A program made the position numbers and the translations under genes. A stretch of 64,000 nucleotides of DNA from Candidatus Heimdallarchaeota archaeon (GTDB taxonomy: Archaea > Asgardarchaeota > Heimdallarchaeia > Heimdallarchaeales > Heimdallarchaeaceae). The stretch is taken from contig JAEOSZ010000026.1 of the NCBI GenBank assembly GCA_016840095.1, forward strand, positions 17,920 through 81,919, read 5' to 3'. Every line of letters starts with the position of its first letter. The stretch's first letter is position 1. The notes under the pieces were generated by a model. That model saw only the letters and a list, made by a program, of their open reading frames with translations. It ran no database searches and was not told the origin of the DNA. Positions 47,465 through 54,008 of this stretch are shown piece after piece.

Positions 47465-47589
47465 TGGTGGCTCGGGGGGGACTCGATCCCCCGACCTCAA
47501 GATTTCTCATCTGAGGTTCACGTTTGCAGTTCTAACCCTTATTTCTGAAGACTATGAGTCTTGCGCTCTGCCAACTGAGCTACCGAGCC
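47465..47589 (-). tRNA. tRNA-Met(CAT), elongator type (Ile2 not excluded), 49-nt intron at 37/38 (47504-47552)
   Basis: Acceptor GGCTCGG/CCGAGCC, A73-CCA; perfect BHB CTCA-TAG-TCT...AGA-TGAG-AAA; spliced length 76 nt; lacks initiator A1-U72 and the GGG stem. Confidence 0.93.
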
Positions 47590-50199: not shown

Positions 50200-50769
50200 A
50201 TGGCAGAAGACGAGGGGCAAGGAAAAAAATACATCTTTAAAATAGTGTTATTGGGTGATCCAGGAGTAGGAAAAAGTTCCCTAATCACTAGATTTGTTCA
50301 CAATCGTTTCCAAGCATCATATCTTATGACTATAGGAGTCGATATTCTAAGCAAACAACTGTTTGTTGAAAAAGATGAGGTATTATTCCTAATAAGTGAT
50401 ATCGGAGGACAAGAAAGGTTTGCATCAGTTAGAGAAAAATTCTATCGTGGAGCAAGAGGATGTTTCTTAGTGTTTGATCTCTCTAGAAATAATACTTTGA
50501 GTTCATTAAAAGCTTGGAAGAAAGGATTGGAAGGTGTTGAAGAAGATGCTTTGTATTTCCTGATAGGTAACAAAGCAGACTTAAAGGAGCAAATTGCAGT
50601 TTCAGACGAAAATATTGAAGAAATGATTCAAGAGTTGGGAATATCAAAGGATTCATTCTTTATTACATCAGCGAAAACAGGTGAAAAAGTAGAAGATGCT
50701 TTCAGAACCTTTGCACAAGAATTAATGAAGGATGTAGAAAGAAAGAGAGTAGAATTTGGTTACGATTAA
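50200..50769 (+). CDS. Rab-like small GTPase (eukaryotic signature protein)
   Basis: G1 GDPGVGKS, G2 TIGVD, G3 DIGGQERF, FYRGA, G4 NKAD, G5 TSAK; no C-terminal Cys. Confidence 0.93.
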   Translation: MAEDEGQGKKYIFKIVLLGDPGVGKSSLITRFVHNRFQASYLMTIGVDILSKQLFVEKDEVLFLISDIGGQERFASVREKFYRGARGCFLVFDLSRNNTLSSLKAWKKGLEGVEEDALYFLIGNKADLKEQIAVSDENIEEMIQELGISKDSFFITSAKTGEKVEDAFRTFAQELMKDVERKRVEFGYD

Positions 50770-50878: not shown

Positions 50879-51018
50879 GGGGCAGTAGTTTAGCCTGGCC
50901 TAAAGAGACAGGTTGTGAACCACCTCTGGTTAATGATGGGGGACTGTCAAGTTCTTTGCAGTCTTGCATTGAGTGCCGAACTCCTTCGACCCGGGTTCAA
51001 ATCCCGGCTGCCTCGCCA
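50879..51018 (+). tRNA. tRNA-Asp(GTC) with two 31-nt introns (21/22: 50903-50933; 37/38: 50950-50980)
   Basis: Acceptor GGGGCAG/CTGCCTC, G73-CCA, T arm CCGGG-TTCAAAT-CCCGG; removing both introns gives a 78-nt archaeal-type tRNA-Asp; BHB-like motifs at both junctions. Confidence 0.88.
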
Positions 51019-51071: not shown

Positions 51072-51719
51072 ATGAAGAGGTATACTTTGTTATTTGTAAT
51101 GATTATACCAATAATTACAGGCATATCTATTGTCAGTACTCCGACTTTGGCAAATCAGTATACTATAGAAGATGGGGATTACATTGACTATGGTTATCAA
51201 ATGCTCGTTGATAGTGCTATCGTAGAAACTCGAACTGAAGCGAATCCCTTTCAGATAGTAATTATGGAAGACAATTGTGTCCCTCCAGGGCTATATATAC
51301 ATCTTATTGGCATGAATAATGGGGAGATAAAAACCAACATAATTATTCCTCCTGAAGAAGGATTTTTGCCAAGTGATCCTACTTATGGTGCTTATTCTGG
51401 TAAAGCTGTTACTTTTAATAATCTTCAAATTTACAAAATAAATGGATATCATTATACAGAACTTCCAACTCAACCTGAACCTAGATCCTTTGTATTTTGG
51501 ATTCTTACAATTGGTGGAACTATTTTAGGTTTGGCAGCTGCAGTTCTTCTAATTTATGGTGGTTATAGATATTATCCTAAACTCTTTGGTAAACGTTGTT
51601 TAACATGCAAGAGAAGTGCTGCGGGTTACTGTAAGAATTGTGGTAAATCTTTTTGCAATACTTGTTACTCAAATGGGTGCCCTAATTGTAAAGGCCGGTC
51701 TCTTATCAGATTTAGCTGA
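51072..51719 (+). CDS. Single-pass membrane protein: signal peptide, FKBP-like domain, TM, C8 zinc finger
   Basis: Start moved to MKRYTLL (the listed start lies inside the tRNA); DGDYIDYGY...PF...LIGMNNGE...IPPEEGF; TM; CxxC-x7-CxxC-x4-CxxC-x4-CxxC. Confidence 0.8.
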   Translation: MKRYTLLFVMIIPIITGISIVSTPTLANQYTIEDGDYIDYGYQMLVDSAIVETRTEANPFQIVIMEDNCVPPGLYIHLIGMNNGEIKTNIIIPPEEGFLPSDPTYGAYSGKAVTFNNLQIYKINGYHYTELPTQPEPRSFVFWILTIGGTILGLAAAVLLIYGGYRYYPKLFGKRCLTCKRSAAGYCKNCGKSFCNTCYSNGCPNCKGRSLIRFS

Positions 51720-51771
51720 AATAGTGTGTCTCTTCGAAATTCTTTTAAATTTTTTTACTTCTCTTTAATCA

Positions 51772-52365
51772 ATGAGACGCCAACTCTATATCTTGATCAT
51801 GCTATCAATTATGACTTCATTAGTTGTTACTCAATCTCTAACTGTTAAAGCATATGATAATCTATATGGAGTTGAATATGACGATGTAATTGATGTTGCG
51901 TTTGAAAGCTGGATAAATGGTATCTTCTCTAATAGTTATACAGCAGAAGGCCCTTTCAGACTTACTGTAAGTAATCAAGTAATCAACTCGAATTTTACTA
52001 GCGAACTCCTTGGGATGAAGGAAGGTGAAGTAAAACCCTATATTACTTGGATTAATTTGGATGAAGATGTAATAGAGTATTATGATACAACAATTGTGAG
52101 GTTAGTAAAAGATTCTACTCCTGATTCAACACTTGCATGGAGAATAATTCGTCCGATTCTCATTACTGTTGCTAGTCTAGGTATTGTTATTGGAGGAGCT
52201 TATGCTGGAGTTAAAATCAGTCAGCGCTTAGGAATCAAAGGATGTTCTACTTGTGATAATAAAGCAACCTCTAAATGCTCAAGATGTGGAGAAAACTATT
52301 GTGCTAGCTGCTCAAGTAAAGGATGCAATAGTTGTGGAAGTAGACAATTCGTTAGACGTCAGTAA
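51772..52365 (+). CDS. Paralogous single-pass membrane protein: FKBP-like domain, TM, C8 zinc finger
   Basis: DDVIDVAF...PFRLTV...F...LLGMKEGEVK; TM; identical 8-Cys spacing. Confidence 0.8.
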   Translation: MRRQLYILIMLSIMTSLVVTQSLTVKAYDNLYGVEYDDVIDVAFESWINGIFSNSYTAEGPFRLTVSNQVINSNFTSELLGMKEGEVKPYITWINLDEDVIEYYDTTIVRLVKDSTPDSTLAWRIIRPILITVASLGIVIGGAYAGVKISQRLGIKGCSTCDNKATSKCSRCGENYCASCSSKGCNSCGSRQFVRRQ

Positions 52366-52420: not shown

Positions 52421-52503
52421 GCCAGGATAGCCAAGTGGTACGGCGGGGGTCTCGAAAACCTCTGGCATCAGCCTCCGGGGTTCAAATCCCCGTCCTGGCT
52501 CCA
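52421..52503 (+). tRNA. tRNA-Ser(CGA), CCA encoded, U73 discriminator
   Basis: Acceptor GCCAGGA/TCCTGGC, anticodon arm GGGGT-CTCGAAA-ACCTC, variable arm GGC-ATCA-GCC, T arm CGGGG-TTCAAAT-CCCCG. Confidence 0.95.
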
Positions 52504-52577: not shown

Positions 52578-54008
52578 ATGGTATCTCCAACATTTCGTGT
52601 AAGAAGTATTTATGATGTTGCACTAATTAAATTAGTGTCAGAAAATCTAGATTTTGAACTTGTACAACCCGTTCCAGAGCAAATTATGTTGTTCAAAATT
52701 GAAGAAAAAATGGTCCCATATGATATTGAAATTCAAGATATCTTAGAAGGTTATGGAATTTCTATTGAAGGAGATGAAGAGTATGTTTCCTTGATCAGTA
52801 CTCTGTTTCATAAAAATATACCCAATTCAATTGTTCTTAAACATCCAGTTCAGCTTCATGCGGTCTATAATGGTAAAGTTGTCCACATTAATAACGAGAA
52901 AAATCTCTCTGTAATTGATATAGGAGAGAATGTTAATGCAATCTTATTTGGTTCAAATTTCCATAAGGGACAAAAAGTAGTTGTTCAGATTAAACAACTC
53001 AACATTTTTGAGGATCAACTACCTGTTTGTTCAACCGTTATTCATTTTCCAGGTCAATCTGTAATATTGGAAAGAGATGCAAATTTTGTTAGAGTTTCAA
53101 GAAAATTACCTAAGTTGGATAGAGATAAGCTATTTGAGTTAGGTAAAGGTATGAGACCGGAAGACCACGGATTAATAATGCGAACTAGCGCAACAAAAGC
53201 CTCACAAGAAGCTATCCAAGCTGATATTGATCAACTTGTTCAAAGAGCTGAAGAACTTGATTTGTTGATATCAGGTTCATCTTATGGTCCAGGAATACTA
53301 CAAGCAGGACAGACAGTTGCTCATGTATTATTAGTAAAGGATGCTAAGGAAAAGCTTACAGAACTTAGAAACAAAGTGGTTCCATCAATACCAATGTATC
53401 ATTGGTTCATGTCTTATTCAAAAGAATTGAAGCTTACTACAACTTTTGCTGAAAGAATTGCAAAAGAAATAGATGGAAACAAAATTTCTACTGTGCTAAA
53501 AGAAATTATTCTAGAAGCAGATTTTAGCGACAACTCTATTATGTATTTACAAGAGTACAAATTAACTTCTCCTCCACAAGAAAGGATTCTAGGCCAACTA
53601 AGTTGGTCAGATGATGTTTTAGTTATTAAGAGGAGTTTTAGATCTTCTCGAGGTGTTCACTATAGCTTAGATATTGATATTAGTCAAGGTGATACTTCCT
53701 CCATTCTTGCAAAAGAAGGTAGTTGGTCAGTACATATGAAAATCTTTCGAGATGACAAACAGTTAGGTGAAACAGTGAAAATCGTAACACCAATAGAGCT
53801 TTGCAATGGTGGAAAACTTAGATATATTGATTTAGGTTTACTACTTATTAAAAAAGAGGAAGAAATAAAGACTGTGGATGAAGGTCTAATAAATCACCTA
53901 ACCGATAAAGGAATAATTTCCAATCAACTAAGAGAGAAAATCTATTCAATTTTAGAAGAATGCCAAAAGCAATTAGCAGCTGGAAAAGATCAAATTCTAG
54001 TAATGTAA
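52578..54008 (+). CDS. fau-1: FAU-1 (RNase E/G-related AU-binding ribonuclease)
   Basis: N-terminal RVRSIYDVALIKL...FELVQP, S1-like region, GLIMRTSA, C-terminal TPIEL...YIDL. Confidence 0.75.
   Translation: MVSPTFRVRSIYDVALIKLVSENLDFELVQPVPEQIMLFKIEEKMVPYDIEIQDILEGYGISIEGDEEYVSLISTLFHKNIPNSIVLKHPVQLHAVYNGKVVHINNEKNLSVIDIGENVNAILFGSNFHKGQKVVVQIKQLNIFEDQLPVCSTVIHFPGQSVILERDANFVRVSRKLPKLDRDKLFELGKGMRPEDHGLIMRTSATKASQEAIQADIDQLVQRAEELDLLISGSSYGPGILQAGQTVAHVLLVKDAKEKLTELRNKVVPSIPMYHWFMSYSKELKLTTTFAERIAKEIDGNKISTVLKEIILEADFSDNSIMYLQEYKLTSPPQERILGQLSWSDDVLVIKRSFRSSRGVHYSLDIDISQGDTSSILAKEGSWSVHMKIFRDDKQLGETVKIVTPIELCNGGKLRYIDLGLLLIKKEEEIKTVDEGLINHLTDKGIISNQLREKIYSILEECQKQLAAGKDQILVM

Follow-up and report, generated by a model that had tools for sequence, protein, structure and literature searches.

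The human protein FKBP11 consists of a signal peptide, an FKBP domain, a transmembrane (TM) helix and a basic tail, and serves at the secretory translocon as an adaptor that binds the ribosome; its positively charged C-terminal helix is located beside uL22 and the 28S rRNA (PMC12804085). The passages of PMC4506424 that cite Burroughs et al. 2011 link prokaryotic B-boxes to the folding, stability and proteolysis of membrane proteins. Here we analyze a tandem pair of genes from a Candidatus Heimdallarchaeota archaeon, gene A (P0001) and gene B (P0002), whose predicted products join an FKBP-like ectodomain to a B-box-like cysteine finger through a single TM helix. The pair is located in a 64,000-nt window (the whole stretch of DNA that was analyzed) of contig JAEOSZ010000026.1, assembly GCA_016840095.1, and all coordinates are positions in this window unless prefixed with G or L. 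The explanation that we favor, with somewhat better than even confidence, is that these proteins are membrane-tethered extracytoplasmic foldases or holdases which share a basic B-box-like cytosolic docking module.

The two open reading frames (ORFs) of the pair, both on the plus strand and separated by 52 nt, are found exactly at 51072-51719 and 51772-52365; each start is preceded by a TATA-like A/T-rich stretch, and a T-run follows P0002. Their features are as follows.

51072..51719, plus strand: gene A (P0001), whose 215-aa product has a signal peptide, an FKBP-like ectodomain, a TM helix and a Cys8 finger (type-A tail)
51072..51152, plus strand: gene A signal peptide or signal anchor, residues 1-27 (MKR, hydrophobic core, TLA/N)
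51153..51476, plus strand: gene A FKBP-fold ectodomain, residues 28-135, without the insert-in-flap (IF) domain
51489..51566, plus strand: gene A TM helix and juxtamembrane basic stretch, residues 140-165
51591..51716, plus strand: gene A cytoplasmic Cys8 B-box-like finger, residues 174-215
51772..52365, plus strand: gene B (P0002), whose 197-aa product has a signal peptide, an FKBP-like ectodomain that is degenerate and has no 80s loop, a TM helix and a Cys8 finger (type-B tail)
51850..52131, plus strand: gene B diverged FKBP-like ectodomain, residues 27-120
52141..52215, plus strand: gene B TM helix, residues 124-148
52237..52362, plus strand: gene B cytoplasmic Cys8 B-box-like finger, residues 156-197

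The proteins are paralogues (25% identity, BLASTP E-value of 2e-19), and a profile-profile comparison limited to the ectodomains of genes A and B gives a probability of 97.6% with an E-value of 3.3e-12. Because both frames are kept open in all 24 genomes of the genus, three of which carry three tandem copies, the pair is not a product of chance.

Each protein starts with K/R residues followed by a hydrophobic core and a small-x-A site, and contains one further hydrophobic segment. In gene A, the N-terminal segment reaches a Kyte-Doolittle peak of 2.21 at residues 5-23, where the AlphaFold2 (AF2) model has a helix (residues 3-20), and the second segment peaks at 2.27 over residues 143-161, within a modeled helix spanning residues 140-172; the 15 residues that follow the TM segment include 4 K/R and no D/E. 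The TM segment of gene B peaks at 2.06 over residues 129-147 and is likewise followed by basic residues, such that both proteins have 3-4 K/R and at most one D/E within the 15 residues after the TM, the positive-inside pattern. The hydrophobic segments and the K/R-rich stretch therefore place the finger in the cytoplasm and the FKBP domain on the outside of the cell, as predicted type-I membrane proteins, and the signal peptides are expected to be cleaved. A preliminary description of this locus, made from the sequence alone, had proposed two diverged paralogues, between tRNA-Asp and tRNA-Ser genes (the flanks are described below), each with a signal peptide, one TM helix, an adjoining run of basic residues and an ectodomain with the FKBP/SlyD skeleton; all of these assignments are borne out.

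The assignment of the ectodomains to the FKBP fold is strongest for gene A, which matches the Pfam family FKBP_C (PF00254) with 23.7 bits, above the cut-off of 21.1. The AF2 model of this protein, built on 18 sequences, has a predicted local distance difference test (pLDDT) score of 88-93 in the ectodomain, which carries no IF insert, and its top Foldseek matches in the PDB are all FKBPs, including SlyD delta-IF, FKBP13/FKBP2, FKBP11, MjFKBP26, FKBP12 and Mip, with E-values down to 4.7e-5 and a target-normalized template modeling score (TMt) of about 0.7, up to 0.75. The gene A family profile retrieves MjFKBP26 as the best match (E-value of 5.5e-4) and also FKBP11 (E-value of 0.019). The ectodomain thus has the FKBP fold, in which a sheet of five strands surrounds a short helix. 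For gene B, the FKBP_C score is 15.1 bits, under the cut-off, and 8 of its 27 orthologues match the same family at E<=0.1, the best of them at 3.5e-4.

We mapped the pocket residues onto gene A through the FKBP11 and MjFKBP26 profile alignments, using FKBP12 numbering in which we take the pocket set to be Y26, F36, D37, F46, V55, I56, W59, Y82 and F99. By this presumed numbering, Y26, F46 and F99 are retained in gene A; the substitutions are D37 to E, Y82 to F, W59 to L, F36 to V and V55/I56 to C/V. The previously suggested erosion of the active-site aromatics is accordingly borne out only in part. The ectodomain of gene B has invariant residues of its own in the family alignment (A3) and probably represents a non-catalytic, binding-type FKBP-like domain. 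The distant members of the family, in Kariarchaeaceae and other lineages, have the same overall layout with a more canonical FKBP pocket, and the ancestor of the family was therefore probably an ordinary FKBP.

The C-terminal fingers of both proteins, which start about 10 residues past the TM helix, share the spacing C-x2-C-x7-C-x2-C-G-x3-C-x2-C-x4-C-x2-C, and all eight cysteines are invariant across 31 tails. The preliminary description had reported an identical tail with a CPxC motif; the spacing is indeed the same, and CPxC is present in gene A only (CNSC in gene B). In the Pfam comparison of the 31 tails, the top families are ANCHR-like_BBOX (PF22586), matched by all 31, and zf-B_box (PF00643), matched by 30, in every case under the cut-off, with the best B-box scores of 18-19 bits (19.1 bits for gene B against ANCHR-like_BBOX) to be read against cut-offs of 24.1 and 27. 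The best matches of the tail in a PDB sequence search are the ZFYVE19 B-box and PML B-box 1; a search of the ESM Atlas with the tail gave no usable match. An AF2 model of the finger alone, made from the 31 tails, has a pLDDT of about 90 over residues 11-50 and contains a single helix of 4 residues (positions 31-34). The Foldseek neighbors of this 50-residue model are dominated by cross-brace zinc domains, among them RING (the TRIM37-type 3lrq and BIRC7), PML B-box 1, TRIM B-box 2, ZZ, FYVE and PHD domains, with a best query-normalized score (TMq) of about 0.6 and no E-value at or below 0.001, and VIA-align against 48,161 chains places RING, B-box, ZZ and U-box domains at Z of 3-4.3, tied with some zinc-binding ribosomal proteins. 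The spacing of the tail (C2C-7-C2C-4-C2C-4-C2C) agrees at every interval with what we take to be the B-box-1 pattern, C-x2-C-x7-10-C-x2-C-x4-5-C-x2-C-x3-6-(H/C)-x2-8-(H/C). The finger is thus modeled with confidence as a RING-superfamily, B-box-1-like, all-Cys domain with a predicted cross-brace pairing of its ligands, which would bind zinc.

The cross-brace neighbors agree with the RING/B-box-like class that had been suggested for the finger, and lead us to reject a double zinc ribbon. The narrower assignment to RING or FYVE did not survive. A FYVE domain is rejected because the WxxD, R(R/K)HHCR and RVC motifs are absent from both tails and the FYVE matches are weak and limited to the CG-x-FC-x2-C stretch. 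A canonical RING is rejected on spacing: loop 1, with 7 residues, is too short, the gap between ligands 4 and 5, with 4 residues, is too long, there is no His, and the 4-residue spacer between C6 and C7 is too small to accommodate the central RING helix that binds E2; only 1-3 of the 31 tails match any of the RING Pfam models (E<1).

These features bear directly on the proposal that the pair represents membrane-anchored RING-type E3 ubiquitin ligases, with the layout of RNF43/ZNRF3 and GRAIL, that ubiquitylate cytosolic or membrane targets when the ectodomain is occupied by a ligand. The RING-superfamily fold is compatible with this scheme, with BIRC7 and TRIM37-type RINGs among the best structural neighbors (TMq about 0.6, Z about 4), and gene A has both CPxC and a K after the last Cys. 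The type-B tails, however, have G at the latter position, and neither tail type has the RING spacing, the His or the central helix. The RING-H2-like proteins of the genome are distinct from the pair; they comprise P0020 and six or more further matches. The refuting condition named in the preliminary description, the lack of a ubiquitin system, does not apply: there are four E2-like (UQ_con) genes in the source genome, and E2 genes are found in 83 of the 83 genomes of the class. These include 28 genomes without the finger, which is found in 55 of the 83, and the co-occurrence of E2 with the finger is therefore uninformative. We consider a ligase function of the pair to be very improbable.

A separate small soluble protein (G000:C157:1854-1931, minus strand, 120-aa frame) contains half of a B-box-like motif, C-x2-C-x7-C-x2-C-x4-C-x2-C, and is weakly matched by the tail profile (E-value of 6.5e-4).

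Scanning the whole genome for the motif, we detected only three proteins with the finger, P0001, P0002 and P0019 (the fourth regular-expression match is a CLLCSC repeat). The third protein carries the same tail behind an unrelated ectodomain.

L021:2580-3389 = G000:C11:66579-67388, plus strand: P0019 (270 aa), in which a WCPPC-containing thioredoxin-like ectodomain, preceded by a signal peptide, is joined to a TM helix and a Cys8 finger

The thioredoxin-like domain of P0019 scores above the Pfam cut-off (AhpC-TSA, 71.6 bits; Redoxin, 61.9 bits; Thioredoxin, 31.3 bits), and the ResA subfamily model matches with an E-value of 9e-26, below that model's own cut-off. By these matches, the ectodomain is a ResA/TlpA/DsbE-like thiol-disulfide oxidoreductase of predicted activity. 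Orthologues of P0019 (267-316 aa) are carried by 12 or more genomes of the genus and also occur in a sister genus. The tail of P0002 is 57% identical to that of P0019; the tails of P0001 and P0002 share 34% identity. In addition, the middle gene of the three-copy arrays combines a gene-B-type ectodomain with a gene-A-type tail, which is evidence that the paralogues have recombined.

G003:C5:18035-19994, G015:C18:4126-6082 and G021:C154:13266-15225: three-copy tandem arrays (loci L011-L013)

A paralogue without the finger (L055:1340-1828, plus strand, in G001:C9; 162 aa) has an FKBP-like domain of the gene B type between a signal peptide and a TM helix, and is located between a RING-like gene and a thioredoxin-tail gene. 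Given the P0002/P0019 tail identity, the shuffling in the arrays and this finger-less paralogue, the TM helix and the finger move as a unit between exported folding catalysts of two unrelated classes and thus behave as a portable module. The presence of this tail on a catalytic thioredoxin-type oxidoreductase is the reason why we read P0001, P0002 and P0019 as foldases or holdases for secreted or surface proteins.

The same observation speaks against the principal functional suggestion of the preliminary description, a sensing or signaling module. In its explicit form, this scheme would make the proteins transmembrane one-component sensors, with ectodomains that sense unfolded, proline-rich or oxidized ligands and a basic finger as the output, which would bind DNA or a cytosolic regulator or would be freed by intramembrane proteolysis. 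An ectodomain such as that of gene B, without the 80s loop yet with invariant residues of its own, looks adapted to binding rather than catalysis; the finger is very basic and the most constrained region in both genes, and the Foldseek neighbor of rank 7 comes from the piggyBac transposase, whose cross-brace finger binds DNA. A sensor is, however, hard to reconcile with an identical type of tail on an enzyme whose WCPPC redox motif is intact and which is similar to ResA in full, or with the more canonical FKBP pocket that the distant members retain. About 10 residues separate the membrane from the start of the finger, no conserved transcription-factor domain or regulated neighbor is present, and two to three paralogues with near-identical tails would produce identical output. 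We regard a sensory role as quite improbable.

Two small genes lie directly upstream of P0019 (L021:2218-2523 and L021:1778-2137, both plus strand), including P0020, a small basic RING-H2-like protein (zf-RING_2 E-value of 3.4e-4, under the cut-off), and P0021, which has two TM segments and a zinc module of the DnaJ type (CxxCxGxG). P0020 was considered as a component of the system and dropped: in four genomes its gene adjoins the thioredoxin-tail gene or lies no more than 6 kb away, and in another the two are on separate contigs.

Each tail contains 10-11 K/R and 0-2 D/E per 50 residues, and the net charge of the tails is +8 to +11. To compare the selective constraint on the parts of the proteins, the ratio of nonsynonymous to synonymous substitution rates (dN/dS) was obtained by the pairwise Nei-Gojobori method for 17 P0001-type and 16 P0002-type orthologues; as dS approaches saturation (about 1.0-1.3) and the pairs lack independence, only the ranking of the following values is trustworthy.

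Finger: 0.17 (P0001 type), 0.19 (P0002 type)
Finger without the Cys columns: 0.25 (P0001 type), 0.24 (P0002 type)
Ectodomain: 0.36 (P0001 type), 0.23 (P0002 type)
TM helix: 0.48 (P0001 type), 0.45 (P0002 type)
Signal peptide: 0.49 (P0001 type), 0.88 (P0002 type)

The finger ranks as the most constrained region of both genes. A merely structural plug would need less constraint at positions other than the metal ligands, and the constraint observed there therefore favors a binding surface. This consideration is relevant to the possibility that the tail has no specific protein partner at all and is a plug that assembles with itself (through B-box-type oligomerization) or binds lipids, by which the foldases would be clustered or held in a fixed topology at an anionic membrane. 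B-box 1 domains can multimerize, and PML B1-box multimers are among the structural neighbors of the finger; the high excess of K/R over D/E is located right at the membrane surface, and no conserved partner gene is found nearby. Nevertheless, the non-Cys positions of the finger are constrained like the ectodomains (dN/dS of 0.25), the distinct tail types A and B are maintained side by side, which is more than a generic basic plug needs, and the FYVE lipid-binding motifs are missing. We consider such a plug rather unlikely.

The mechanism that we propose for membrane-tethered foldases or holdases with a docking tail is as follows. Type-I membrane proteins would present, on the outside of the cytoplasmic membrane, an FKBP-type domain for folding or peptide binding, with the strongly basic Zn2-Cys8 B-box-like finger placed at the cytoplasmic face some 10 residues past the TM. 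The finger would serve as a portable docking module, common to the two FKBP proteins and P0019, and the tail would fix or concentrate the folding domains at a partner on the cytoplasmic face. In the specific version that we prefer, the basic tail would bind the translating ribosome or the Sec translocon, as the basic C-terminal helix of FKBP11 does, such that the folding domains meet the chains emerging from the channel; argued from this analogy, docking to the ribosome or translocon is a tentative proposal with a low probability of its own. The ectodomains may possess residual peptidyl-prolyl isomerase (PPIase) or chaperone activity, and both the docking role and the nature of the partner are put forward here as predictions.

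Several observations weigh against this explanation. No partner of the tail is known, and a search for an operon partner of the pair ended in rejection, the neighbors being housekeeping and tRNA genes of which none is conserved as a partner. The enzymatic activity of gene A is uncertain because the pocket residues are kept only in part, and an hhalign comparison with the gene A ectodomain reveals an 11-residue deletion at the 80s loop of gene B. The finger is dispensable for some members of the family, such as the finger-less paralogue at L055:1340-1828. The near-saturation of dS and the dependence among the pairs that underlie the constraint estimates belong here as well, and two differences from FKBP11 are discussed at the end.

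In the genomes searched, the family is confined to a part of the Heimdallarchaeia, marginal matches aside. The named homologues come from metagenome-assembled genomes of Candidatus Heimdallarchaeota, Heimdallarchaeaceae and Kariarchaeaceae, and the gene A orthologues in Heimdallarchaeota are 41-83% identical. A single copy is present in the sister families f2 and f3, and none was found in the 3 genomes of f4 that were searched. A profile of the finger alone matches, in the 55 positive genomes of the class mentioned above, members of four families only (29 of 30 genomes in f1, 1 of 1 in f2, 12 of 12 in f3 and 12 of 22 in f5), with no match in f4 (0 of 3), f6 (0 of 2) or f7 (0 of 12). In a sample of the phylum (151 genomes), the same profile matched no other Asgard family, save for two marginal matches of 40-41 aa in f8, and a phmmer search of P0002 against 1.84 billion representatives retrieved only 35 proteins. 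The distant members (P0043, P0046, P0047, P0054, P0042 and the loci L052, L054 and L056, family f5) retain the succession of signal peptide, FKBP domain, TM helix and finger; in the fingers of other Heimdall families, S or D takes the place of the sixth Cys, or the cysteines are spaced differently (C-x2-C-x11-C..., C-x7-C-x4-C). Public annotations describe the homologues as FKBP-type isomerases or hypothetical proteins. The sequencing runs that contain this DNA are marine sediment metagenomes, with no RNA run listed.

The pair is flanked by two tRNA genes that mark its conserved boundaries, and the order tRNA-Asp, pair, tRNA-Ser is preserved across the family.

50879..51015, plus strand: tRNA (Rfam), read as an intron-bearing tRNA-Asp(GTC) with two introns; conserved 5' boundary
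52421..52503, plus strand: tRNA-Ser(CGA) (ARAGORN; Rfam, 54.7 bits); conserved 3' boundary

The former (137 nt; Rfam RF00005, 31.3 bits) is missed by ARAGORN with default settings and miscalled with the intron option. At the same position, the relatives have a tRNA-Asp(GTC) with one intron (29-32 nt) or none, and the sequence in the window is consistent with a version of this tRNA that has two introns. Another Rfam tRNA match that is not reported by ARAGORN (47468-47589, minus strand, 122 nt, 58 bits) is probably an additional intron-bearing tRNA. The neighborhood of the pair includes genes for uL16, uS7, a HIT protein, a Ras-family GTPase, an RNase E/G-like protein, DUF2797, an aminotransferase, an epimerase and tRNAs. 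The Ras-family small GTPase (50200-50769, plus strand; Pfam Ras, 144 bits) is located just 5' of tRNA-Asp, and we saw no sign that it belongs with the FKBP pair. Directly 3' of tRNA-Ser is the gene for a 476-aa, FAU-1-like protein with an RNase E/G family match of 41.6 bits (52578-54008, plus strand).

Little is known about the folding of archaeal proteins after export, and Heimdallarchaeia are the closest known relatives of eukaryotes. A portable TM-plus-finger tail that is found on two classes of folding catalysts, and is more constrained than the catalytic domains, suggests an organized folding station at the outer face of the membrane that is addressed from the inside. Should the tail bind the ribosome or the Sec translocon, the origin of co-translocational folding of the type seen in the endoplasmic reticulum (ER) would become testable. 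The tail could then be the zinc-finger-based Heimdallarchaeial counterpart, possibly even the forerunner, of FKBP11- and TMX-type ER factors, acting at the archaeal Sec channel; we deem this unlikely, and if true, it would imply that ER-type co-translocational folding machinery predates eukaryotes. Even if the tail is only a basic plug, the proteins have a lineage-specific domain architecture that is worth a family entry.

No published description of an FKBP-TM-B-box or thioredoxin-TM-B-box architecture was found in the literature, in line with the earlier statement that no described family has this layout. The closest overall parallel is human FKBP11 (FKBP19; PDB 9n9j), which shares with the archaeal pair the signal peptide, the non-cytosolic FKBP domain, the single TM and the short, positively charged cytosolic tail; FKBP11 is among the top structural (Foldseek rank 3) and profile matches of gene A, and W59 is replaced by L in both. 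Here the two reservations announced above apply: the tail of FKBP11 is a basic helix, whereas the archaeal tail is a Zn2-Cys8 finger, and the archaeal MjFKBP26 outscores FKBP11 as a profile match, FKBP11 being at most a putative specific orthologue. Furthermore, the archaeal gene differs from FKBP11 in being tandemly duplicated and in having a tail in common with a thioredoxin-type enzyme. SlyD delta-IF and MjFKBP26 are the best Foldseek and profile matches, respectively, and the PPE-x-GF motif of gene A has F at the Y82 position, as in MjFKBP26. SlyD and MjFKBP26 are cytosolic and have the IF chaperone insert and, in SlyD, a metal-binding tail, whereas the archaeal pair is exported and membrane-anchored and lacks the IF; gene A also has PPGL in place of V-I-R-G-W.

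On the side of the finger, the B-box 1 of TRIM/PML and the B-box of ANCHR/ZFYVE19 are similar in ligand spacing, in the predicted cross-brace fold and in the conserved Ala between ligands 2 and 3. The archaeal finger differs from the known B-boxes in having Cys at every one of its eight ligand positions, the last two of which are usually His in B-boxes, and in its C-terminal position directly behind a TM helix, with scores below the Pfam cut-offs. RNF43/ZNRF3 and GRAIL have in common with the pair the type-I topology and a cytosolic RING-superfamily finger; the pair is distinguished by the B-box spacing, the lack of the central helix and of His, and folding-enzyme ectodomains instead of PA/receptor ectodomains. 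Finally, the membrane-anchored foldases of bacteria (PpiD, PrsA, ResA/TlpA) and the thioredoxin-related TM proteins of the ER (TMX) follow the same logic, in that a PPIase or thioredoxin domain is tethered to the outer side of a translocating membrane. The anchors of the bacterial foldases, however, are an N-terminal TM helix or a lipid, without a zinc-finger tail, and PpiD and PrsA are parvulins. In comparison with all these systems, the proteins analyzed here are a lineage-restricted variant assembled from known parts, namely an FKBP fold, a ResA-like thioredoxin and a B-box-like finger, rather than a new kind of system.

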